Shown here: positions 10,023-63,470 of the stretch, piece by piece
How the letters are laid out: every line of letters begins with the position of its first letter
Numbering within the stretch: position 1 is the first letter of the stretch
Virus record (IMG/VR): IMGVR_UViG_3300043448_001007
Location: 10,281 to 74,280 of that record
Source: a virus
DNA length: 64,000 nucleotides
Strand: one strand, 5' to 3'
The notes under the pieces: model-generated
Databases searched by the model: none
Seen by the model: the letters and a program-made list of their open reading frames with translations, nothing else
What the model was told of the DNA's origin: nothing
Program-made: the position numbers and the translations under genes

Positions 10023-10633
10023 ATATATTTTTCTAATCCATAGTTACCAACAATTTCCTCAATATGTGGGATTTTTAAAATATCCTCATAAAATGAATCA
10101 TTACCAACATGAATACCACTTTTAAAATTTATTTTAACCAAATCACCCTCATCAATCACTTCTACCTCACCTAATATATCTTTTAAAAACCTAGTATATA
10201 ATTTAGTTCTTTGAGAATCTTTATTATCTTTGATATGTCTCTCTTGATCACTGGAACTTCTCTTAGGATAAAATGATATTCCCTTAAAAACCTCTTCCTT
10301 TTCCCATATTTTATACTTATTGTTAGTTGATATTAATGATAATACTCCAGCATCATAAGCAGTTGATAATATTTTAGAAATTCTATCCATCATTTCATTT
10401 CTATTAGTTACTGGTAATTCTGAATAATCTTTACTACCATCACTATTTTTTTGATAGAAATCAACTAGAATATAACCACTAGATAATTTAACATTAAAAT
10501 ACATCTTAATATCACCTATCGTAGATGACATTTCACTCGGTATGTTTAACCCATCAATATTCTCAATATTTTTATTAGAAATATATTTTTCTAATAATAA
10601 ACAGAATTCCTCAAATAATTTTAAATAAATCAT
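10010..10633 (-). CDS. Hypothetical protein with 'MIYLKLFEEF' N-terminus
   Basis: ORF track; late promoter at 10638-10646 (minus). Confidence 0.7.
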   Translation of the reverse strand: MIYLKLFEEFCLLLEKYISNKNIENIDGLNIPSEMSSTIGDIKMYFNVKLSSGYILVDFYQKNSDGSKDYSELPVTNRNEMMDRISKILSTAYDAGVLSLISTNNKYKIWEKEEVFKGISFYPKRSSSDQERHIKDNKDSQRTKLYTRFLKDILGEVEVIDEGDLVKINFKSGIHVGNDSFYEDILKIPHIEEIVGNYGLEKYIKKT

Positions 10634-51569: not shown

Positions 51570-51909
51570 TACTTTTTTTCATTTTATTAAATAATTCAAT
51601 ATTCTGTATTGGATAATCACACCCCCAATTTTCATTAAGAGTCCTCTTCCTTTTCACCTCAGAACATTTTCGACAATAATAGTACCCCCAAGTATTATTA
51701 TATTTGACATAATTTTTAAAAATAACATCCTTAACTACATTACAATTTAATCCATCACATTTACATGTAATTTTGTAACAAGATCCGGGTGTTAAAAACT
51801 CAATCGGTATTAATATCTCATCACCAATCATTACATCATATCCCAAATCTTCAAAATATTGGTAGTTGGATTCAATTATTTTTACTTTTATTTCTCTTGT
51901 TAAAATCAT
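51517..51909 (-). CDS. Zn-binding endonuclease-associated domain protein (no nuclease core)
   Basis: CKCD..C, YYCRKC, single 'ENWGCDYP' repeat like those of the Hef-like paralogs. Confidence 0.55.
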   Translation of the reverse strand: MILTREIKVKIIESNYQYFEDLGYDVMIGDEILIPIEFLTPGSCYKITCKCDGLNCNVVKDVIFKNYVKYNNTWGYYYCRKCSEVKRKRTLNENWGCDYPIQNIELFNKMKKSIVENLYERKKSRNKSRD

Positions 51910-53393
51910 AATATTATTTCATATTTTATTTTACCACAATCCCAAATTTTTGGGATTTCTAATTCAGATTCACTTATTCCAGTAATTGACCTTTTAAAAT
52001 TTGATTTATGGATTCTTTCACCATCAAAAACATATTTATAGTCTGGATTACTTTCATTTACCTTTTCAAATTTTAATTTAGTATATAGATCACCACGGCT
52101 CCAATCTCGATCAGCATAACTTATTATTCTGATTGGTTTATAATTTTTAATAAAATAATTAAGTAATTTTGAAGCACCACCTATAACATTAAATCCAATC
52201 TTATTACAAAATCTATTTAAATTCCATTCTCCATAATTCATTTTCTTACGACCTTCAAATTGATCAAATGTCATTAAACAAACCAACTCTTCATTGTGAA
52301 ATAAACCTATTTTAATTTTTGAATTTGACCAACCTTGGATATGATTATTGTTTAAAAATTTTTTAACTAATTCTATATCATCAATTTCCTTAATAATACA
52401 ATTTCTAGATCCAATTTTTGAACTTAATTTTAAAAGATTTCCTATTTGACTTTCAATTATACTTTTTCTATGATTCCAATCATCTTCCCAAAAATGGATT
52501 AATCTAATTCCCTGTGATTCGAAAAATTTTGTCTTTTCTAAATGGAAATTTTTATCCTTATATATCTCAGAATGCCAATATATACCATTGAACTCAAATC
52601 CTATTTTCTCGGATGGTAGAAATATATCAATTTCTTTATTACCAATTTTATAATTTTGTATTATTTCCCCATTATATATTGATTTTATAAAGTTAAATAG
52701 GTTTATCTCACCACCAGATTGATGACCATTTATTTTATTACAAATTGTGCATAATATTGTTTTATATTTAATCCTTTTATGGAATAAATCAATATCTATT
52801 TCAAAATCATGTTCTTTATTGTTATCACATCTAAATAAAGATATTCCATTTTCCTTATAAGATAAATAATTTTTATGATTAGCAATTTTAAAATTGTTTT
52901 TTCTAAAAATTTCACTTTTTTTGTTATTTGATGCCCCCCAATTTTCTAAATATTTTTTAGCTTTGAGATCTTTTACTTCTCTGGATTGTGAAACATTTTC
53001 AACTCCCCATCTATCTAAATTTGTTGATTTTTGTTTATTTAAAACTTCTTTATTTTTTAAATGATGTTCAACACCAAACTTTTTAATATTATTCTCTTTT
53101 ATTTTTATTTGAATATCTTTTGATTGTGATACAAACTCAACACCTCTTTTCTCTAAGTTGGTCTTTTTTGACTTTTCTTTGATATTATCTAATTGGAATA
53201 CGTTTTCAACTCCCCATTTTTCTAAATTATTCTTCTTTAATTTACATTTTTTACACAAATACTCACCATTACAATATCCATATGATGTATATAATTTGAA
53301 TTTTATCTTTTTATCAATACCACATGAATCACAGACTACCTCTATTTCAGTATTACTCCATTTTCCAATACTATCTATATTAGTTTTAATCAT
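51906..53393 (-). CDS. Hef-like homing endonuclease
   Basis: EKWGVEN repeats; EIDIFLP..GFEFNGIYWHS; FWEDDW; RFC..GGASKL; SYAD; IWDCG. Confidence 0.75.
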   Translation of the reverse strand: MIKTNIDSIGKWSNTEIEVVCDSCGIDKKIKFKLYTSYGYCNGEYLCKKCKLKKNNLEKWGVENVFQLDNIKEKSKKTNLEKRGVEFVSQSKDIQIKIKENNIKKFGVEHHLKNKEVLNKQKSTNLDRWGVENVSQSREVKDLKAKKYLENWGASNNKKSEIFRKNNFKIANHKNYLSYKENGISLFRCDNNKEHDFEIDIDLFHKRIKYKTILCTICNKINGHQSGGEINLFNFIKSIYNGEIIQNYKIGNKEIDIFLPSEKIGFEFNGIYWHSEIYKDKNFHLEKTKFFESQGIRLIHFWEDDWNHRKSIIESQIGNLLKLSSKIGSRNCIIKEIDDIELVKKFLNNNHIQGWSNSKIKIGLFHNEELVCLMTFDQFEGRKKMNYGEWNLNRFCNKIGFNVIGGASKLLNYFIKNYKPIRIISYADRDWSRGDLYTKLKFEKVNESNPDYKYVFDGERIHKSNFKRSITGISESELEIPKIWDCGKIKYEIIL

Positions 53394-53532: not shown

Positions 53533-55635
53533 ATGAAACCTATATTAATCGTAGAGAACAACACAAATCCTCTTTCGTTAAATGAAAATTTAAGTGGAAA
53601 GGATAAGTATGTTCTTTCAGGACCATTCACTGAATTTGATATCGTGAATAGAAATGAAAGAGTTTATACTGCTAATAAGTTCTTACCAGCTCTTCAAGAG
53701 TTGAATGAAAGAATTAAACAATTGGGTGTTGTGTATGGTGAGTTCGATCATCCCGACGTCTTTGACACATCATTACAAAGAGCATCTCACATTATCACTA
53801 AAGCTTCTTTTATGAAAGAAAGTAATAGAGTTGATGGTGAGATTCGTTTACTAACTACCTATTGGGGTAAAGAAGCAAGAGCTTTAGTTGATGATGGATG
53901 TCCTATTTTTGTTTCCTCAAGAGCTGCTGGTATTACTGAGTCTGATGGAAGTGTATCATTAAAGAAATTATTTACTTATGATATTGTTGCAGATCCTGGA
54001 TTTGCATCAGCTAAAATGTCTGTAAAGCCATTGAATGAATCATTAGGGTATAATTTAAATAAATCTAACTTTAGGATATATGAAATGTCCGACGAGTCAA
54101 AAATCAATCAATTATTTATGAATAACAATAATGATTTTGTTACAAAGAAACAATTGACCGATTACTCTAAGTATCTAATCAATGAGATAGCATCAACTAA
54201 AAAAGAAGTTAAGTCTGCTGTATCTGAAGGTAAAATGGATCCTAAGCAATTGGAAAAATTGTTAGAGTACTATGAAGAGTTGAATAAAACTAATACTGAC
54301 ATTGTTAAGTATTTGGATTATTTGGCTAATAAAGTACAAGTGGTAGTTAATGAGAATAAGTCATTAAAATCTACTACAGATCGTTTGATCAAACATAACG
54401 ATTATATCGTTGAAAATCTTGAAAAAACAATTAACTATTCTGAGTATGTAGCTGAGAAAGTTGATAAAAACATCTCCTATTCTGAGTATGTAGCTGAGCA
54501 ATTGGATAAAAATATTGCATATTCTGAATATGTAGCAGAACAAGTTGATAAAAACATTGCTTATTCTGAATATGTAGCAGAACAATTAGATAAAAACATC
54601 GCTTATGCTGAATATATCGCTGAGAATGTTGATAAAAACATTGCTTATTCTGAATATGTAGCAGAACAAGTTGATAGTTCTATCGCTTATTCTGAATATT
54701 TAGCTGAACATGTTGAAGGAAATATTGCTTATGCTGAATATATCGCTGAGAATTTAGATGATAATATCGCTTATTCTGAGTATATCGCAGAAAGTTTAGA
54801 TAAATCAGTTTCTTACCAAGCTCTTATTGTTGAGAAATTGAATAACAAGAAAAATAAATTAAATGAAAATGCTGAATATGATCCATTACCAACTCCAGAA
54901 GAAGTAGGTTTTGAAGATGAATCAGAAGAAGAAAATGAATTTGGTGATGAAAACGAATTCCCTTCTGAAGATGAAACTCCAGCATTGGTTGAATTCGATG
55001 AAGAAGAACATTCTTTAGTTGATTCTGATGATGAGTGTGAACCTTGTGGTGATGACTATTCAGAAGAAGAAGAAGTTTTAGGTGAAGAAGAAGTTACTAC
55101 ATTCGAAGGAAACTCTGATACAGAATTATCAAAATCTATTGATAAATTAATCGAAGAAGCTAAAAAACGAAAAGCTGCTGAATCTTCAGACGTTCATTTT
55201 TTAAAATTCTTAAATAAATCTCAGGTTGATAGTTTCTATGGCTTAACAAACGAAGAGCAAGAATCTGTTAAACTTTACATAAGCGAAAAAAGTTTCTTTA
55301 CACAAAAAGATGTGTTGAGATTAATATCTGAGGCTTTATCTACTAAGAATGAATCGTTAGAGGAACGAATTATCCGAATGATGCCTGATTCTATCAAGCC
55401 AATTTGGAACCAATTAAATGAGAGTAATAGAAAATCAATTTTATCTCAGTCTAGATTATTCCCTGCGGAAGTTCTACAAACTGAATCACAAATTGAGCAC
55501 TTCTGGAATACTCGTAATTTAAAGAAAAATGAATCTGTAACTAAGAAGTTAGTTTCTCACGAAGCTTTGATCCAAGAAGATAAAGTTTCTAATGATGAAA
55601 TGAAAGCTATTATGGAAAGATTCAAAAATATTTAA
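53533..55635 (+). CDS. gp21: Prohead protease (gp21-like) fused to scaffold with 14-aa repeats
   Basis: NRNERVY, GEFDHP, SSRAAG, TYDIVADPGF; coiled-coil and acidic C-terminal part. Confidence 0.9.
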   Translation: MKPILIVENNTNPLSLNENLSGKDKYVLSGPFTEFDIVNRNERVYTANKFLPALQELNERIKQLGVVYGEFDHPDVFDTSLQRASHIITKASFMKESNRVDGEIRLLTTYWGKEARALVDDGCPIFVSSRAAGITESDGSVSLKKLFTYDIVADPGFASAKMSVKPLNESLGYNLNKSNFRIYEMSDESKINQLFMNNNNDFVTKKQLTDYSKYLINEIASTKKEVKSAVSEGKMDPKQLEKLLEYYEELNKTNTDIVKYLDYLANKVQVVVNENKSLKSTTDRLIKHNDYIVENLEKTINYSEYVAEKVDKNISYSEYVAEQLDKNIAYSEYVAEQVDKNIAYSEYVAEQLDKNIAYAEYIAENVDKNIAYSEYVAEQVDSSIAYSEYLAEHVEGNIAYAEYIAENLDDNIAYSEYIAESLDKSVSYQALIVEKLNNKKNKLNENAEYDPLPTPEEVGFEDESEEENEFGDENEFPSEDETPALVEFDEEEHSLVDSDDECEPCGDDYSEEEEVLGEEEVTTFEGNSDTELSKSIDKLIEEAKKRKAAESSDVHFLKFLNKSQVDSFYGLTNEEQESVKLYISEKSFFTQKDVLRLISEALSTKNESLEERIIRMMPDSIKPIWNQLNESNRKSILSQSRLFPAEVLQTESQIEHFWNTRNLKKNESVTKKLVSHEALIQEDKVSNDEMKAIMERFKNI
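54436..54813 (+). repeat. Nine 42-bp tandem coding repeats (Y[SA]EY[VIL]AE...NIA)
   Basis: Visible in both DNA and protein. Confidence 0.9.
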
Positions 55636-55676: not shown

Positions 55677-57353
55677 ATGTCACACATTAGAATAGACAAA
55701 TCAAAAGCAACAAAAAAATGGGGTCCTGTATTGGAAAATATGGGTATCTCTGGCGAAAGAGTTGAATGGATGTCAGAATTAGCTGAATATCACCAAATCA
55801 ATGAAAACGCTTATGCTAACGCTACTACAGCTGGTATGGGTGCAGTAGTAAATCCAAATATGGCTGGTATCTTCCCTGGTAATGCTGGTGGATACTCTAA
55901 CTCAGCATTAGGTTCAGGAGACGTTGGTCAGAACTTATTACCTGTAGCTATGAAAATCGCTGGTCAAACTATCGGTTTAGACTTAGTAGCAGTAAAACCT
56001 TCTCCAGGTCCAAAAATTGACTTGATTTATATCGATTTCCAATATGATGATTTATCTGATGTTGGTGGTATGTCAAGACCTCAAGTATTCAAAATCACTA
56101 ATGCATCTGCTAATGTTAAAGCATCAATCGGTGCAGCTTTAACAGCTAATCCAGCTATTAAATTAACACAAGGTGGTTTACAAGGTGGTAGATTATTCGT
56201 TAATACTATTAAAGTTAGTGCTGCTCTTGTAAATGCTGAACCAACTGGTTCTAAAGAAGGTGTTTTAGAATTCTTAGGATTCTCTCGTATTGATGGTCAT
56301 CCAATGTTCAAAGCTTATCGTCAAGCTAACTCTACTCCAGTAGGTGCTGGTGTATATCCTTACACTTTTGATCAAAAATTAAACACATTCAATCCAACTC
56401 AATCAATGGTTGATCAAATTTTATTCATTGGTACTGCTTCAGCAACTGCTTCAGCAATTGAATTAGTATCTGCTCTTGAAGATCACTTACCTGGTTTCTC
56501 TGCAAACTGGTCATCTAAAGTATCTTCTGGTGATTATCCAATGGATAGAGCAACTGATGATAATACATACTCTGGTATCATCGGACCTAAAGTATCTTCT
56601 AAATCAATCGCTGTTGGTACTGTTGAAGTATCTACTGCATTAAGAAGAACTGAAATTGAAGATATCAAAGCTAATACTGGTATGGATATCGTTCAAAAAA
56701 TGGAATCTATCTTAGTTAATGAGTTGTCTCAAACAATCTCTAAACAAATTGTAGCTAAAATATTTGAATTGGGTGATTTGAATAGACAATCAGCTCCTTT
56801 AGCTGGTTCTGCTACTTCAGTTACAGCAACTGCTTCAACTATTTTTGACTTAAACACTACTTATGCAAATGTAATTGGTGGTGAAACTACACACGCTGTA
56901 CAAAGAAAGTTAATCACTAAAATGGTTCACGCTTCTAACTACATCGCTACTGAAGGTCGTGTAGGTCCTGCACAATTTGCAATCACTAATGGTGGTTTAG
57001 CTGCATCTTTAATGGATATCGCAGGATATACTATTAACCCAGTTAAATCTAAATTAAATGGTTCTGGTCAATTGTATCCAGTAGGTACTATCGGTGATAT
57101 TCAAATCTATGTAGATCCATATCAAAGATATAATGATAACAGAATTGTTATCGGTAGAAAAAACAACCCTGATCAACCAGGTTTAATTTTCGTACCTTAC
57201 TTGATGGCTCAGTCAATCAGTGTAATCTCTGAAGCAACTTTCGCACCTCGTATGTTGTTGAGATCTAGATACGCTATCGCAGACGTTGGATTCTTCCCAC
57301 AAAAACAATATATGACTATCGTAGTTGAAGATGCCGCTGGTTACTTAAACTAA
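55677..57353 (+). CDS. gp23: Major capsid protein (gp23-like)
   Basis: KW.PVLE, IG.DLV.V.P, LVNELSQ.I.K.I, YVDPY, PGLIFVPY, FAPRMLLRSRYA. Confidence 0.93.
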   Translation: MSHIRIDKSKATKKWGPVLENMGISGERVEWMSELAEYHQINENAYANATTAGMGAVVNPNMAGIFPGNAGGYSNSALGSGDVGQNLLPVAMKIAGQTIGLDLVAVKPSPGPKIDLIYIDFQYDDLSDVGGMSRPQVFKITNASANVKASIGAALTANPAIKLTQGGLQGGRLFVNTIKVSAALVNAEPTGSKEGVLEFLGFSRIDGHPMFKAYRQANSTPVGAGVYPYTFDQKLNTFNPTQSMVDQILFIGTASATASAIELVSALEDHLPGFSANWSSKVSSGDYPMDRATDDNTYSGIIGPKVSSKSIAVGTVEVSTALRRTEIEDIKANTGMDIVQKMESILVNELSQTISKQIVAKIFELGDLNRQSAPLAGSATSVTATASTIFDLNTTYANVIGGETTHAVQRKLITKMVHASNYIATEGRVGPAQFAITNGGLAASLMDIAGYTINPVKSKLNGSGQLYPVGTIGDIQIYVDPYQRYNDNRIVIGRKNNPDQPGLIFVPYLMAQSISVISEATFAPRMLLRSRYAIADVGFFPQKQYMTIVVEDAAGYLN

Positions 57354-57469: not shown

Positions 57470-59512
57470 ATGAATTCAGAAAAAATTAAAAAGATAGAAT
57501 CGATTGTTGAAGACAAAACAGTTAGGTTAAGAGAATCCTATTGGATTAATAATTATAGTGAATTTCATAAAGAAGTATCAGATTATATTAATTTAGATAT
57601 ACCATTTATTCAAAAATTATGGCATTGGGTTAATGATTATCCAAATGAGTTTAAATGTTTATGTGGTAATAAAACATCATTTAATAGAAATTGGAAAGAT
57701 GGTTATAAGAAATTTTGTTCAACAAAATGTTCATATAAGGATTCAAATACTTTAGAAAAGAGAAAAAAAACAACTTTGGATAAATGGGGGGTTGAGAATG
57801 TTGCTCAATCTAAAAAAATTAAAGAAAAAACAGAAAAAACAAATTTAAAAAGATATGGAACTAAATCATCATTCCAAAATAAAGATGTTAGAGAAAAATT
57901 TAAAAGAAATTATCAAGAAAAACACGGAGTTGATCACCCATTTAAGAATGACGAAGTAAAAGATAAGATTAAACATTCCAATAATATAAAGTTTGGTAAA
58001 GACTATTATACACAAACAGATGAATTTATTTTAAAGTCAAAAATAACAAATAATTTGAAGTTTGGAAAGGATTACTATACACAAACAAATGAATTCAAAG
58101 AAAGATTAATTAAAATATCAAATGAAAAATGGGGTGTTGATAGTTATTTACAAACAGATGAATTAAGAAATATATTAAAAGACAATAAAGATTTAATTAT
58201 TGAAAAGTCAAAAAAGACTAGCTTAGATAATTGGGGAGTTGAATTCTATACACAATCTGAAGATTATAAAAATAAATCAATTAACTTTAATAGAGCTGAC
58301 CAACAAAAGATTAGAAAAACAAATTTAGAGAAATGGGGTAAAGAATATTACACTCAAACAGATGAGTGGAAGGAAAATATGATTAAACACAATCAAGAAA
58401 AATATGGTAAGGATTGGTATTCACAAACAGATGGATTTAAAGATGTTATTAAACTACAAATAGATAAGTTTAAAGAACTTAAATGGATAAAATCAAAGGA
58501 GTATTATAAAAATTGTGGATTTGAATTATTATCGAAAAAAGGAGAGTTTGTTGAATTGGTAAGTGATTCTTGTGGTCATACTTTTAGTATTTATCGAGAC
58601 ACTTTTTATAAAAGATATGGTGAATATAATATTAATCCTTGTATTATATGTAATCCATTAAATTCTGGAGTGTCTGGCTTAGAATTGGAAGTCGTAGATT
58701 GGTTAAAATCATTAAATATTAATATTGAGACTAATAATAGATCATTGATTGATGGATTTGAATTAGATATAGTAATACCAGATCAAAAAATTGCTATTGA
58801 ATTTAATGGATTATATTGGCATTCAGAGTTCTATAAAGAAAAGAACTACCATTCATTAAAAACAGATTTATGTAAAAATATTGGATTTAGATTGATTCAT
58901 ATTTGGGAAGATGATTGGAAAAATAAGAATGAAATAGTTAAATCAATAATTTTAAACTCGATCAATAAAATAGATAAAAAAGTTTGGGCTAGAAAATGTA
59001 ATATTAAAGAAGTTGATAGTAAGTCAGTTAGAATTTTTTTAGATAGTAATCATATTCAAGGTAATTGTCAATCTAGTTTAAGATATGGGTTATATCTTGG
59101 AGATGAATTGATATCATTAATGACATTTGGTTCTAGATATATTAATGGTAAATCATCTTATGAATTATTAAGGTTTTGTAATAAGATAGGATATTCCATT
59201 GTTGGGGGTGCTTCTAAATTATTTAGTCATTTTTTAAAAAATTGTGAGGAAAGTGAAATTGTGTCATATGCTGACCTTTCTATATTTGATGGTTATTTAT
59301 ATAAAACATTGGGATTTAAATTCATACATAGAAGTAATATAAATTATTGGTGGGTTGTTAATGGAAAAAGACATCATAGATTTAATTTCTCTAAGAAAAG
59401 ATTAGTTAAGTTAGGATATGATAAAAGTTTAACAGCTGATTCTATTCTACATTCAATAGGGGCTTATAAAATATTCGGTTGTGGTCAAGATCGATATGTT
59501 TATAAAAGATAA
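57470..59512 (+). CDS. Hef-like homing endonuclease with expanded K(W/Y/F)G..YYTQT repeats
   Basis: About nine 'EKWGV/KFGKDYYTQT' repeats; ELDIVIP..AIEFNGLYWHS; WEDDW; RFC..GGAS; SYAD. Confidence 0.75.
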   Translation: MNSEKIKKIESIVEDKTVRLRESYWINNYSEFHKEVSDYINLDIPFIQKLWHWVNDYPNEFKCLCGNKTSFNRNWKDGYKKFCSTKCSYKDSNTLEKRKKTTLDKWGVENVAQSKKIKEKTEKTNLKRYGTKSSFQNKDVREKFKRNYQEKHGVDHPFKNDEVKDKIKHSNNIKFGKDYYTQTDEFILKSKITNNLKFGKDYYTQTNEFKERLIKISNEKWGVDSYLQTDELRNILKDNKDLIIEKSKKTSLDNWGVEFYTQSEDYKNKSINFNRADQQKIRKTNLEKWGKEYYTQTDEWKENMIKHNQEKYGKDWYSQTDGFKDVIKLQIDKFKELKWIKSKEYYKNCGFELLSKKGEFVELVSDSCGHTFSIYRDTFYKRYGEYNINPCIICNPLNSGVSGLELEVVDWLKSLNINIETNNRSLIDGFELDIVIPDQKIAIEFNGLYWHSEFYKEKNYHSLKTDLCKNIGFRLIHIWEDDWKNKNEIVKSIILNSINKIDKKVWARKCNIKEVDSKSVRIFLDSNHIQGNCQSSLRYGLYLGDELISLMTFGSRYINGKSSYELLRFCNKIGYSIVGGASKLFSHFLKNCEESEIVSYADLSIFDGYLYKTLGFKFIHRSNINYWWVVNGKRHHRFNFSKKRLVKLGYDKSLTADSILHSIGAYKIFGCGQDRYVYKR

Positions 59513-59536
59513 TTTTTCAAATTAATATATACTGAT

Positions 59537-60814
59537 ATGAAATATTTAAAATCTTATAAAAAATACAATGAGGATGTTGCATTTGCTTCAACAGCTGGTA
59601 TGGGATCCGTTTCAAATTCACAACCAGGTGGATTTGCTGGTGATGTTTCAGGATCAACTCCCGGATCCGGTGATATACCCTTCTATTTAAAAAGAAATAA
59701 AGGGAAAAAAGGAAGTCCAAGCGAGGTTAGTGATTTAAGAGATTTGGAAGAAGTTGATGTTGAAGAAATTGATGACTTAAAAGAAGGATTTATTTTTGAA
59801 AATAAATCTGACATAAGATATAATTGGGTAGTTTTATATTTTGATAATATTAAAAAATTTAGTAATGGTGAAACAGGTCAATTATTAGATATTTTTTGGG
59901 CTGAGGATATGAATGAATTATATCATATTTTAAAAGATAATATATTTGATAATGAGGATGAAGAATTAACATATACAAATATTCCATATGATGAATGGTG
60001 TGGTTGGGCTAATGAATATAAAATTATTAGAGCTGGAGAAAAAGAACCAAGATTTCAAATTTGTTTAGATTCTGATAATTGTTGGAATGATTTCCTAGAC
60101 TTCTATAATAATGCTCCATTAAATGAAAATAAAGTAGTTAATTTTAAAGTATTTGAAAGTTCAAATAAATATAATTGGTTAATAACCTATCAGGATTATG
60201 ATAGTGATGAGGAAAATATCATTTGGTGTGAAGATATGAATGATGTTTATAAATCTATTAAAGGAAACCTATTTATCGATGAGGAAAATGAAATTGATGA
60301 AACTAATATTCCATATAGTGAGTGGCATGGTGGTAATGTCTATATAAAAATCTATAAATATGGTCAAAATCACGAATCCTTTCAAATCCATTTACAATCA
60401 GATGATACTTGGAACGATTTCTTAATTTTTTATAATGAAGTTCCATTAAATGAGAGTAAAAAGAAGTTTCCAAATATTAAAAAGATGGAAATTGATGGAT
60501 TTGAGGTTCTGATGGGTAAAGATGCTGATTCAAACGATTATTTAACTATTCAAATGAGAAAAGATGGGGATTTGTGGTTCCATGCACATGGATTTCCAGG
60601 ATCTCATATAATTTTAAGATGTGGTGATAGAATTCCGGATCAAAATACTAAAAAGAAAGTGGCGGAATTGGCCGCTAAGAATTCAAAGGCATCTGGATTG
60701 GCTACTGTAATATGTTGTCCAATTAATTTAGTTAAAAAGGAGTCTGGTTCAAATCCAGGGAAAGTTAAGATAGAAGATAGTCTTAATATTGAGAAAATAG
60801 ATATTAATCTATAA
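59537..60814 (+). CDS. Multidomain protein: targeting-like N-terminus, two ~100-aa duplicated acidic domains, C-terminal NFACT-R (DUF814) RNA-binding domain
   Basis: DGFEVLMGKDADSNDYLT...DLWFHAHGFPGSHIILR...AELAA.NSK is the NFACT-R signature of RqcH/FbpA. Confidence 0.8.
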   Translation: MKYLKSYKKYNEDVAFASTAGMGSVSNSQPGGFAGDVSGSTPGSGDIPFYLKRNKGKKGSPSEVSDLRDLEEVDVEEIDDLKEGFIFENKSDIRYNWVVLYFDNIKKFSNGETGQLLDIFWAEDMNELYHILKDNIFDNEDEELTYTNIPYDEWCGWANEYKIIRAGEKEPRFQICLDSDNCWNDFLDFYNNAPLNENKVVNFKVFESSNKYNWLITYQDYDSDEENIIWCEDMNDVYKSIKGNLFIDEENEIDETNIPYSEWHGGNVYIKIYKYGQNHESFQIHLQSDDTWNDFLIFYNEVPLNESKKKFPNIKKMEIDGFEVLMGKDADSNDYLTIQMRKDGDLWFHAHGFPGSHIILRCGDRIPDQNTKKKVAELAAKNSKASGLATVICCPINLVKKESGSNPGKVKIEDSLNIEKIDINL

Positions 60815-60821
60815 TTAAATT

Positions 60822-60830
60822 TAATATATA
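60822..60830 (+). promoter_or_regulatory. Representative phage late promoter TAATATATA (>20 copies in window)
   Basis: Other copies: plus strand 3355, 15860, 18251, 20284, 25202, 29246, 32469, 38349, 40195, 44411, 46507, 48671, 59523; minus strand 3318, 8978, 9617, 10638, 11281, 14685, 17350, 27285, 32401. Confidence 0.8.
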
Positions 60831-60834
60831 CTAA

Positions 60835-62208
60835 ATGGGACCATTAATAAAATACACCGACAGATTATATGATATATTTGATGAAATTGGTGGTAAAATT
60901 GCACAGAAGTTGATAATGTTGGAGGGTGATCCGAGTGTTATGAATGATTATTATGCTAAACTTATAGATATTTCAGAAGATGATTATTGTTTTGATCTTA
61001 CGATTGAGGATAATATTGAACCAGTTAAGATTGGATCTTTTGTTAGACATTTTTTGGAAAAAACTTGGACTGATCAAGAGTTTTTTGATTTCACAACAAG
61101 ATATAATGAATTGAAGGGTAAATATTTTAAGAAGAAAGAATTGGCTTATGGTTATTCTAAAGGAAGTAAAAAAGATGAAAGGGTTATATCTGGAACTCCA
61201 ATTGAAGTACCACCATTTAGTTTTAACCCTAAAGATGTTAGATCAACTTTCATTTCATTGGTAACAGAAACATATCCACATGGACATGAGGAAGAAGTTG
61301 TTCCTTTTATTAAAGATATTGGACTAAATAAAGATAAGTTTGGTAATTATTATAAAATAGTTGGTAATTCAACTACTATGTTTACTTCTCACTTAGATAC
61401 TGCTGATCGTAAGAAATCTAAAGTTGTTCTTTTAAGTGAATTAAAAGGAGGTGATGAAATTATTAAAACTGATGGATCAACTATTTTAGGGGCAGATGAT
61501 AAAGCTGGTGTTACTGTAATGTTATATATGATTTCTCACCAAGTTCCGGGATTATATTATTTCTTTATTGGTGAAGAAAGAGGTGGTATCGGCTCGTATA
61601 AATTAGCTGATTCTTATGATTCATTTCCATATTTAAAAAATATTAAAAAATGTATATCATTTGATAGACGAAATACTGTTTCTGTAATAACAAGTCAATT
61701 GGGTAGAGTTTGTTGCTCAGATACATTTGCTCAAAGATTGTGTGATGAGTATTCAAAATCTGGACTTAAATTAAGCTTGGATAATACTGGTGTGTATACT
61801 GATTCTGCTTCATTTATTGATAATATTTCAGAGTGTACTAATATATCTGTTGGGTATATGAATGAACATACAATTAATGAAACACAGAATATAACCTATT
61901 TAGAGAAACTGGCTAAGGCATCTGTTTCTGTTAATTGGGATAGTCTACCTAATACAAGAAAGGCTGGATTATCAGATGAAATTAAAAGAAAATATGGTAA
62001 GTTTTTGAGTGATTTAAGAAAGTGTAAAATAGATATGAATTGGGAATTAATTGGGGAAGATGGTGTGGCTAATATATGGGTGGAAATGGAAGGAACACTA
62101 CATGATGCTCATTTAGATTTAATGATTTTGGAAGATTTGTGTAATCGACATAAAATAGATCCAACAATAACCTTTGATACTTACTATTTCAAAATGGAAT
62201 TAAAATAA
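60835..62208 (+). CDS. M28/M20-clan zinc peptidase
   Basis: SHLDT, GADDKAG, GEERG, SFDR, YTDS, GY.NEH. Confidence 0.85.
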   Translation: MGPLIKYTDRLYDIFDEIGGKIAQKLIMLEGDPSVMNDYYAKLIDISEDDYCFDLTIEDNIEPVKIGSFVRHFLEKTWTDQEFFDFTTRYNELKGKYFKKKELAYGYSKGSKKDERVISGTPIEVPPFSFNPKDVRSTFISLVTETYPHGHEEEVVPFIKDIGLNKDKFGNYYKIVGNSTTMFTSHLDTADRKKSKVVLLSELKGGDEIIKTDGSTILGADDKAGVTVMLYMISHQVPGLYYFFIGEERGGIGSYKLADSYDSFPYLKNIKKCISFDRRNTVSVITSQLGRVCCSDTFAQRLCDEYSKSGLKLSLDNTGVYTDSASFIDNISECTNISVGYMNEHTINETQNITYLEKLAKASVSVNWDSLPNTRKAGLSDEIKRKYGKFLSDLRKCKIDMNWELIGEDGVANIWVEMEGTLHDAHLDLMILEDLCNRHKIDPTITFDTYYFKMELK

Positions 62209-62218
62209 TTTATAATAT

Positions 62219-62641
62219 ATGATTAAGAACTGGAAACTATTTAAAGAGAAGTATGATGAGGTAGATGACTCTGATTGGGATATTGAAGATGATGATTATG
62301 AACCATCTGAAGAAGATTTAGAAGATATCTTGGATGATAATGATATTGATTTAGAGATTGAAAATCTATGTTCGTTAATTCGTAAATATTTGAAAAATTC
62401 AGATCTATCATCATTAGTAGAATATAAAGATGGTGATTTAACTATTTATATATTTTTGGAAAAAAAGGAGAAGATCGGGTTATTAACTTCAATCCTGGAA
62501 GTTTTAAAAAATCTTCATAATGATATACTACCGGAATATGAAAGTAGTGTTGAACTATATCAAAATAAAACCAAAGAACCACTTTTGATTATTTCTTTAT
62601 ATAGAGATGATGAGGGTGATGGGGATAAAAATAAAAAATAA
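62219..62641 (+). CDS. Acidic protein with 'MIKNWKLFKE' N-terminus
   Basis: D/E-rich N-terminal half. Confidence 0.7.
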   Translation: MIKNWKLFKEKYDEVDDSDWDIEDDDYEPSEEDLEDILDDNDIDLEIENLCSLIRKYLKNSDLSSLVEYKDGDLTIYIFLEKKEKIGLLTSILEVLKNLHNDILPEYESSVELYQNKTKEPLLIISLYRDDEGDGDKNKK

Positions 62642-62642
62642 T

Positions 62643-63056
62643 ATGAGATATTTAAAAAAATTCGATTTTTATATTATTGAAAATGTAGAACAACTATCAT
62701 TAAAATACATCAGACCTGATGTAACTGATGATATGGGTTGGAGGAAACCAGGAATGGCAGATTGGGGTGTATTTAAAAATGATGAGTTAGTTGCTGTTTT
62801 TTATTTAGATGATGAAAAACCTGATCTTTATATAAGAGGATTTGAAATAAAAGAAGATTTTAGAGGTAAGGGTTATGGAAAAAAAGTTTTGGACTTGATA
62901 AAGTCATATGCTAAATCGAAAAAGTTTAAATTCTTAACTCTGAATTTTTATAAATCAAATAAAGTAGCTGAACATCTTTATAGGAGTTACGGTTTCTTTG
63001 ATGATACTAAGCAATTTCCAGAATCACCTGTTATTAATCTAAGAATGAAAATTTAA
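62643..63056 (+). CDS. GNAT acetyltransferase
   Basis: FRGKGYGKKVL acetyl-CoA motif and N..A..LY.SYGF; start moved to ATG 62643 (MRYLKKFD). Confidence 0.85.
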   Translation: MRYLKKFDFYIIENVEQLSLKYIRPDVTDDMGWRKPGMADWGVFKNDELVAVFYLDDEKPDLYIRGFEIKEDFRGKGYGKKVLDLIKSYAKSKKFKFLTLNFYKSNKVAEHLYRSYGFFDDTKQFPESPVINLRMKI

Positions 63057-63101: not shown

Positions 63102-63468
63102 GGGGATGTCTAGGCATTTGATTTGTTATTGAGTGGTAATTGTGCAAGCATCGGTTTGATAGCGTCCGATTAAAATAAACTGTTAAACAATAAACGCAAC
63201 TTCTAACGAAGTAGGAACCGCTGAAGACTTAGTAAGCGCCCTAAGAAACAACCAATTAGCGAAAGCTGAATTAGTTTAGTACTAAGATTAACTCACAATC
63301 TAAAAGAGAGAAAGATATCTTACATCTATAAAGAAAGAAATAGTTAGATGATCCAGTTCTATTTAAAAACGATCTATGTTTTGAAATTTTTCGAAAAAAA
63401 TTCTAAGCTTGTAAATGAATAGTTATTGACTTGTAATGAAAACCGCGGTTCGAGTCCGCGCATCTCCA
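63102..63468 (+). ncRNA. ssrA: tmRNA
   Basis: Acceptor stem GGGGATG/CATCTCC-A with a G3:U pair; T-arm CGCGG-TTCGAGT-CCGCG; about 367 nt; internal tag ORF; followed by a terminator. Confidence 0.92.
63196..63279 (+). other. tmRNA tag reading frame: (A)ATSNEVGTAEDLVSALRNNQLAKAELV*
   Basis: Resume codon GCA after ATAAAC; TAG at 63277-63279. Confidence 0.7.
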
Positions 63469-63470
63469 CT

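Follow-up and report, generated by a model that had tools for sequence, protein, structure and literature searches.

The 64,000-nucleotide stretch of virus DNA analysed here (the window; positions 10,281 to 74,280 of IMG/VR virus record IMGVR_UViG_3300043448_001007) carries at 59537-60814, on the plus strand, an open reading frame (ORF) for a 425-amino-acid (aa) protein that ends in an NFACT-R domain, and the question it raises is why a phage would place such a domain behind a capsid-like leader and two further domains in a gene positioned after that for its capsid protein. A preliminary description had taken the product for a polyprotein that the prohead protease cuts into separate injected effectors, one of them a stand-alone NFACT-R that could modulate or decoy host ribosome quality control. 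Taken as a whole, the best explanation is in our view a packaged and cleaved head cargo that delivers NFACT-R to the next host, a proposal that we hold to be about evenly poised between right and wrong. Its processing and packaging component is slightly the more probable part, since the glutamate borders are conserved, the leader is derived from the capsid protein, and an E-S-K sequence is invariant within a disordered linker. The evidence partly supports a gene for head cargo that is addressed and processed in the manner of T4, here with a solo NFACT-R. What is new at this locus is the multi-module build and the long leader, derived from the capsid N-arm, with its conserved [ILV]KE↓S end (arrows mark candidate cuts), together with a predicted mature N-terminus that is invariant and modules that, to judge from the aligned sequences, are swapped at its border.

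The ORF is open up to its stop codon (60812-60814), and all of the modules that had been listed in it, the Gly/Ser segment after the tag among them, are present at the coordinates given for them, on the plus strand. It starts with a tag, MKYLKSYKKYNE (59537-59572, aa 1-12), which has an aromatic pair (Y7/Y10) and a Y-N-E end, and continues into a leader body (59573-59785, aa 13-83) in which a copy of the capsid N-arm (STAGMGSVSN..GSGDI) is followed by a basic patch, a PSEVSDLRDL box, an acidic patch and a terminal LKE. The segment GFIFE (59786-59800, aa 84-88; FIFE itself is aa 85-88) offers a second candidate site, I-F-E, directly before domain A1 (59801-60127, aa 89-197), an acidic orphan domain with a P-L-N-E end. 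A tag-like linker with a V-F-E end, NKVVNFKVFE (60128-60157, aa 198-207; KVVNFKVFE is aa 199-207), then leads into domain A2 (60158-60454, aa 208-306), likewise acidic and ending in P-L-N-E, and the NFACT-R module (60455-60811, aa 307-425) combines an SKKKFPNIKK extension with the NFACT-R fold. An AlphaFold model built on a 12-sequence family alignment recovered these borders independently: folded regions span aa 92-198, 208-303 and 311-425, aa 1-91 are disordered (predicted local distance difference test, pLDDT, ~30 for the leader), and the linkers at 199-207 and 304-310 are of low confidence (pLDDT <50), with PLNE, KVFE and PLNE at their edges. The claim of a modular protein is thereby sustained, as three folded domains joined by exposed linkers.

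The C-terminal assignment to NFACT-R also holds, by a profile score above its cut-off and a match to the RqcH fold, and the remainder of RqcH is absent. Pfam NFACT-R_1 (PF05670, formerly DUF814) matches aa 319-412 at E 1.3e-10, scoring 42.3 bits where the gathering cut-off is 29.8, with all homologs tested likewise above the cut-off, and the modelled domain (pLDDT 80-94) superposes on B. subtilis RqcH 8s1u_H with a root-mean-square deviation of 1.4 A over 113 columns at 32% identity (Foldseek E 4e-8), matches 5h3w (E 8e-9), and can be superposed equally on FBPS of S. suis and human CCDC25 (8woh, 7eof; Foldseek E ~1e-6 for CCDC25). By sequence the domain is nearer to RqcH than to CCDC25 (phmmer E 3e-12 to solved RqcH chains versus 0.02), and it is 27-32% identical to RqcH NFACT-R in structural alignments and 38-46% to that of Bacteroidota. 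Across the family alignment, whose 12 sequences are 37-72% identical outside the invariant positions, N333, D345, W347, H349, G355-S356-H357 and S383-K384 are kept in 12 of 12 members; they include the residues of DLWFH (D345, H349), GSH (H357) and NSK (S383), the same DxxxH, GSH and SK residues as in RqcH, and DxxxH with the serine is the signature of NFACT-R in the NFACT family (PMC4075521, Burroughs and Aravind 2014). No match to NFACT-N (PF05833) was found in the 425-aa protein, in the 74-kb record or in two 0.63-0.64 Mb relatives, which excludes Ala-tailing. Upstream of NFACT-R there is no Pfam match to an HhH pair or a coiled-coil M domain, and the model shows two alpha/beta domains there; lacking NFACT-N, HhH and coiled coil, the protein cannot be RqcH.

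Nor do the phage domains sit among those of RqcH. In our tree they form a deep monophyletic clade of their own (support 100/99) on a long branch, 0.91 to the RqcH domains, and no donor is resolved; the RqcH domains sampled were the matches from our search only, with two Streptococcus rows lacking the motif omitted. Every genome examined has one NFACT-R, in the same position each time. We set aside NFACT-R matches from 'phage' records of Staphylococcus, Listeria and Enterococcus, which look like RqcH sequence of the hosts.

If the domain is so constant, how much of the rest of the protein is constant with it? Comparison among relatives reduces the constant part to [aromatic]xx[hydrophobic]xE, then [S/G]KK.KFPN[IL]KK, then NFACT-R, and in most relatives this part is the entire protein, of 129-130 aa and an isoelectric point (pI) of ~9.5, in which an 11-residue tag resembling the T4 capsid targeting sequence (CTS) precedes NFACT-R (for example MRLKKYSQFNE↓SKKDKFPNIKK). 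Such solo tag-plus-NFACT-R proteins make up 588 clusters at 90% identity in a set of 5.8 billion proteins and occur on contigs of up to 634,780 bp. Among the 64 short forms with the FPN anchor, 54 bear an N-terminal tag of 13-17 residues (right-aligned consensus MIKKFNSFNE↓GKKDK), and in all 54 of these a Glu stands 5 or 6 residues ahead of the anchor. E-S-K stands directly ahead of NFACT-R in 12 of 12 aligned homologs, within the linker of pLDDT <50; loci L001 and L002 have E-G-K where the aligned homologs have E-S-K. The glutamate borders that the preliminary description had proposed are conserved in every homolog examined. The mature product predicted from a cut at E306↓S307 would be a basic payload of ~13 kDa (module pI 9.0, mature forms 9.0-9.6) with NFACT-R as its sole folded domain, which is already the case in the relatives of 129-130 aa and would apply here only with that cut.

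Upstream of this constant part the architecture varies. Five relatives (L002, L007, L008, P0005, P0191) have one A domain and an internal tag; P0004 has tag, A domain, tag-like linker and A domain; the 425-aa protein of 59537-60814 has the same series with a leader after the tag; and P0003 and P0002 have a leader, one or two A domains and a DUF6576/coiled-coil insert. In P0006, a metagenome protein of 377 aa sourced from NCBI, two copies of a different domain (DEWFGVSIV..CDQFEGLIKL) take the place of A and are followed by VVE↓SK and NFACT-R. The predicted mature N-terminus (SKK.KFPN) is the same regardless of which modules precede it. Our linker NKVVNFKVFE resembles the internal tags KIMNFSLFNE (L008), KIIKFDKFNE (L002) and ETFKKFLE (P0004), and KIFE↓N is kept in P0002 and P0003, matching the site before A1. 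Further, contigs from two other freshwater samples (runs X5 and X6) leave the window sequence exactly at 60456/60458, the NFACT-R border, and one of them encodes ..PDAYNRVIE upstream, like the insert-bearing form of P0003; divergence at these positions points to recombination at module borders. A constant SKK.KFPN start beneath variable modules would amount to domain accretion at a protease site.

Where, then, does the long leader come from? Its first 47 residues are 44% identical to aa 32-83 of the capsid protein (E 2e-8), so that by sequence alignment its template is the stretch at 55770-55925 on the plus strand, and the tag MKYLKSYKKYNE aligns with capsid residues 32-43, MSELAEYHQINE. Around the aligned Glu the capsid protein reads MSELAEYHQINE before and NAYANATTAGMGAVVN...GSGDV after, and the leader MKYLKSYKKYNE before and DVAFASTAGMGSVSN...GSGDI after. 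INE↓N would be the maturation site of the capsid protein, by homology with T4 gp23, and the likeness of the tag to the site at which the capsid propeptide would be cleaved supports its reading as an address. Of the database proteins that we fetched, 38 bear the complete leader (about 85 aa), and the cargo types behind it, unrelated to one another, number at least 8; since many of the 38 are near-identical it is the number of cargo types that matters and not the 38. The cargos include a GH108 lysozyme, a typical ejected-protein activity, and a 326-aa protein that is widespread but has no known function (P0007 is among the leader bearers). All but two of these leaders, 36 of 38, close with [ILV]xE[SGAN] 7-14 aa past the PSEVSDLRDL box, 33 of these reading [ILV]KE[SGA]. 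The leader border drawn in the preliminary description is therefore weakened, the conserved end being LKE↓G at aa 83 and FIFE, at aa 88, a second site (IFE↓N).

These features are familiar from T4. There the N-terminal decapeptide of IPIII is enough to bring foreign proteins into the head; within this CTS, positions 4 and 7 serve targeting and positions 8 and 10 processing (PMC9026906). The protease gp21 cleaves after L/I-x-E, and diverse internal proteins have just the address in common (PMC9026906, PMC3012670). As in IPI, IPII and IPIII, the short N-terminal peptide here has two aromatic or hydrophobic positions and a hydrophobic-x-Glu end, the mature products are small and basic, unrelated cargos share only the address, and the portal, protease, scaffold and gp23-family capsid genes form a module of T4 type (PMC9026906, PMC3012670). 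The likeness has its limits: the T4 CTS has 10 residues against 11-12 here, in a different register with the second aromatic at P3 (the third residue ahead of the cut); and the present protein adds the 83-aa leader from the capsid N-arm, consists of several folded modules joined by linkers that resemble the tag, is encoded after the capsid gene and bears a translation-type cargo domain. In giant phages of a different lineage (phiKZ, 201phi2-1, SPN3US), too, many head proteins are cleaved after Glu, frequently at more than one site, and the products are ejected into the host (PMC9026906); their sites are S/A-x-E, whereas P3 here is hydrophobic as in T4, and none of them is known to carry NFACT-R.

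A protease of the right kind would have to be at hand, and the surrounding genes offer a candidate. Nearly the full length of a 74-kb IMG/VR fragment, whose completeness is put at 16%, falls within the window. The capsid protein encoded here shares 68-69% identity with its counterparts in LR745206.1 and LR756502.1, phages of 634-642 kb. Both fall in the Mahaphage clade, for whose largest members Bacteroidetes are the predicted hosts (PMC7162821), and the window comes from a huge phage of this type. We compared 11 loci (the window, 8 further IMG/VR loci and 2 huge-phage genomes), and all 11 have the genes for a protease-scaffold (~700 aa), the capsid protein, NFACT-R, a metallopeptidase and an acidic protein, in that order; the NFACT-R gene is absent after the capsid gene in the more distant huge phages LR756504, LR756501 and LR756500. 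The gene for the prohead protease-scaffold fusion lies at 53533-55635 (plus strand), upstream of the capsid gene, and its match to Peptidase_S77 (aa 22-141, E 7e-6) stays just under the cut-off, so that the preliminary identification of a prohead protease at 53533 is retained, as a gp21-like enzyme and with that proviso. Its scaffold, at about aa 300-455, shows in the translation ~11 tandem 14-residue repeats (NIAYSEY[VIL]AE[QN][LV]DK), each of which ends in a candidate cleavage site, [VIL]-A-E. The capsid gene at 55677-57353 (plus strand) is of the T4 gp23 family (Pfam Gp23, E 3e-26), and the record also has a Portal_T4 match (E 9e-57). Directly after the NFACT-R gene in all 11 loci stands that for an M28/PepT-like metallopeptidase (here 60835-62208, plus strand; PHROG 4191, E 2.5e-66; weak M28 and NCBIfam PepT-like matches), which might trim the new N-termini or degrade released peptides.

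On this evidence, and by analogy with T4 and phiKZ (PMC9026906), we propose the following course of events. The tag and leader would dock the precursor on the scaffold core or on the inner shell of the prohead; the gp21-like protease would cleave after Glu at exposed hydrophobic-x-Glu sites (E12, E83/E88, E197/E207 and E306); and mature NFACT-R, beginning SKKKFPN, would stay with the DNA and enter the next host with it. There it may bind large ribosomal subunits that bear peptidyl-tRNA and most likely would promote release of the nascent chain in the manner of Jlp2, by which ribosomes would be freed for phage translation or stalling imposed by host defence undone.

Several observations weigh against the processing and packaging steps. 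The S77 match of the protease is weak, at 26.1 bits against a cut-off of 27, that is 0.9 bit below it, and a direct phmmer comparison with T4 gp21 (5jbl) gives an E of only 0.37. Triplets of the hydrophobic-x-Glu type number 17 in the 425-aa protein against 12.3 expected by composition, which is not significant, and in or beside the two inter-domain linkers there are ~3 against ~0.85 expected by our estimate (p ~0.05), which is borderline; what goes beyond chance, in our sequence comparisons, is the conservation of the sites at module borders across homologs and not the motif count. Some ends of A domains have Lys at P3 (KNE in L007 and P0005, KSE in P0123), the tag is internal in the forms with A domain, tag and NFACT-R while the T4 CTS is defined as N-terminal, and folded acidic domains of 12-13 kDa are odd partners for packed DNA. 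Similar short tags open ~12-14 of the 67 ORFs of the record, and about one fifth of ORFs is many for virion cargo. The association between tag and the promoter-like motif described below is weak, at an odds ratio of 3.1 (p = 0.07, with a crude tag pattern).

The commonness of the tags and the unremarkable overall count of hydrophobic-x-Glu triplets speak for a rival explanation, in which the protein would be a late cytoplasmic factor, neither packaged nor cut. Produced together with the head proteins, at full length here or in the 130-aa form in relatives, it would keep ribosomes free in the producing cell under the heavy load of late translation, in parallel to a phage transfer-messenger RNA (tmRNA), and its N-terminal peptide would be a shared feature of expression or regulation and not an address. 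A tmRNA gene does lie 2.3 kb downstream (63102-63469, plus strand; ARAGORN; 27-codon tag ending ELV) and recurs in the closest relative, L006 (L006:11101-11448), and huge phages carry release factors, RRF, tmRNA and SmpB (PMC7162821). None of the other 9 loci examined has it in its flanks, however, while linkage to the capsid gene is universal, and we rejected tmRNA as a fixed partner of the module, as only the window and L006 have the linkage. Tag-like peptides moreover occur internally, where translation initiation has no bearing, a leader that copies the capsid N-terminus is hard to explain without a role in assembly, and E-S-K is invariant within a disordered linker. We consider this cytoplasmic explanation unlikely.

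What do the A domains contribute? The two had been called paralogs, and they are indeed 45% identical over 104 aa (E 1e-27). Both are acidic (A1, pI 4.2 and net charge -14; A2, pI 4.1 and net charge -16), and the fold modelled for A1 is beta-beta-alpha(3)-beta-beta-alpha (pLDDT 79). The Glu at the end of the A domain is invariant in a 5-sequence alignment and sits past the last predicted helix. A profile of the domain has 6 matches only among 1.84 billion representative proteins, and it has no match in Pfam or PHROG. Searches for fold relatives returned eIF4E fragments as best match in PDB (Foldseek E 0.08, TM ~0.3), Erh1 as best VIA-wide match (Z 5.2, under the noise level of the tool) and a best value of 0.75 in the ESM Atlas, and the A domain is on its model an orphan without an assigned fold, which does not make the fold new. 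P0124 (856 aa, E 7e-5) shares a W..W.EFYN repeat only and was set aside as unrelated. The domain has no match in the complete 634,780-bp genome LR745206.1 and elsewhere was found almost solely fused to NFACT-R (once, in P0121, with a tag only), which suggests a pro-domain or an accessory that is optional, and not an independent effector. The same two observations weaken the earlier idea of separate injected effectors.

That idea belongs with an account in which NFACT-R, catalytically inert, would compete with the RqcH of the host for obstructed 50S subunits as a decoy or dominant negative, and A1 and A2 would be independent injected effectors. The want of NFACT-N, HhH and coiled coil in the protein, the record and the two complete relatives would suit a domain incapable of Ala-tailing, and Bacteroidota, the predicted host phylum (PMC7162821), have full RqcH. 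Yet on the ribosome the NFACT-R of RqcH is peripheral and poorly resolved, near the A-site finger, with NFACT-N/HhH and the M domain making the main contacts (PMC8012679), which would leave the isolated domain a weak competitor, and the residues of active-site type, including the DxxxH histidine, are strictly retained. A decoy of ribosome quality control is thus conceivable and weakened by these residues, and together with the difficulty over the A domains this account strikes us as the least probable of those considered, and quite improbable in itself.

A release role has a reported precedent. Burroughs and Aravind knew solo NFACT-R forms from eukaryotes only (PMC4075521). The solo NFACT-R protein Jlp2 of yeast is reported to release nascent peptides from ribosome-bound peptidyl-tRNA, with H44, in W-F-H with H52 eight residues on, essential for release, and the authors raise the question of the same activity in other NFACT-R domains that contain the histidine (preprint of 2025-26, bioRxiv 10.1101/2025.09.04.673968). 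Our W-F-H349 and H357 match the H44/H52 spacing, an equivalence that is set by motif spacing. As in Jlp2 and CCDC25, NFACT-R would stand alone in the cut product, W-F-H and a second His eight residues on are conserved, and the model fits the CCDC25 structures. There are also differences: sequence similarity to CCDC25 is marginal (E 0.02); a C-terminal coiled coil is absent (the protein stops 13 residues past the Pfam match and the last element of the model is a beta strand); the position of Jlp2 D46 is His or Lys; and the protein is viral, with a capsid-address tag. Since the DxxxH histidine and the full set of NFACT-R residues are invariant, the sequences favour release, or at least binding of 50S-peptidyl-tRNA, over a passive decoy. 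Three points speak against this function: the Jlp2 evidence concerns a protein of eukaryotes and comes from a preprint; the RqcH of bacteria has the same histidine and is not known to release peptides; and the NFACT-R of CCDC25 binds double-stranded DNA (8woh, 7eof), and a DNA role fits a location in the capsid equally.

DNA binding of the CCDC25 kind is a serious rival for a basic protein inside the capsid. The product would be packaged and processed just as we propose, and the basic fragment would serve as a nucleic-acid-binding internal protein with no ribosome role, condensing the phage DNA, aiding its ejection or protecting it, whether inside the capsid or as it enters the cell. Human CCDC25 is itself a solo NFACT-R that binds double-stranded DNA by this domain, to which the model matches, and in their small size and basic charge the mature forms recall the internal proteins of T4 (PMC3012670). 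A generic basic binder would need less, however, than the pan-NFACT-R residues, including those of the DxxxH/GSH cavity, that are invariant here, and the sequence lies nearer to RqcH than to CCDC25; we judge this rival doubtful, on a level with the cytoplasmic factor.

The remaining features of the neighbourhood concern expression and mobile elements. A promoter-like motif, TAATATATA, lies at 59523-59531 (plus strand), 5 nt ahead of the ATG, and the identical 9-mer recurs at 60822, just ahead of the next gene; of the 67 ORFs of the record, 26 have TAATATATA or TTAATATAT at most 45 nt upstream, large structural genes among them, and the motif is likely, from its placement, a late-type promoter element. 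Plus-strand sites comprise 59523, 60822 and 15 others (for example 46507, 38349, 20284 and 15860). Several freshwater metagenomes, independent of one another, contain the gene (runs X1-X5 among them), and in a river metatranscriptome library two 151-nt contigs match it at 100%, which is too few to claim transcription. Between the capsid and NFACT-R genes, a homing endonuclease gene (57470-59512, plus strand; PHROG homing/HNH endonuclease, E 1e-124) forms an insertion that is absent in 9 of the 10 related loci, with L007 having an unidentified 466-aa ORF there on the opposite strand. A second, related homing endonuclease gene lies inside the head module, between portal and protease (51906-53393, minus strand), and both encode DUF7487 with a core like REase_MTES_1575. 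The acidic protein that follows the peptidase in all loci (62219-62641, plus strand; pI 4.2) has the tag MIKNWKLFKE, and the 3' end of its gene overlaps an ORF for a GNAT acetyltransferase (62607-63056).

In its strongest form our proposal would be that virions of huge Bacteroidota-type phages inject, as one cargo of many, a histidine-type solo NFACT-R that hydrolyses peptidyl-tRNA on obstructed 50S subunits, that the capsid-derived head address is universal, and that the enzyme is made in this lineage as a true polyprotein whose acidic A domains mask or chaperone it until cleavage, all of which taken together we think improbable. If true, such an injected NFACT-R would be the first release factor of its kind outside eukaryotes and the first virion-injected ribosome-rescue enzyme. 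A leader that duplicates the capsid N-arm hints at how docking might work in concrete terms. Should the protein indeed be processed and packaged, the cargo of uncultured huge phages would be readable from sequence, as a tag or leader with a Glu site, and phage heads would deliver translation-rescue activities beyond anti-restriction proteins. For the biology of NFACT-R, the family provides a small and abundant test case on the prokaryote side, being 130 aa, basic and monophyletic, with 588 clusters.

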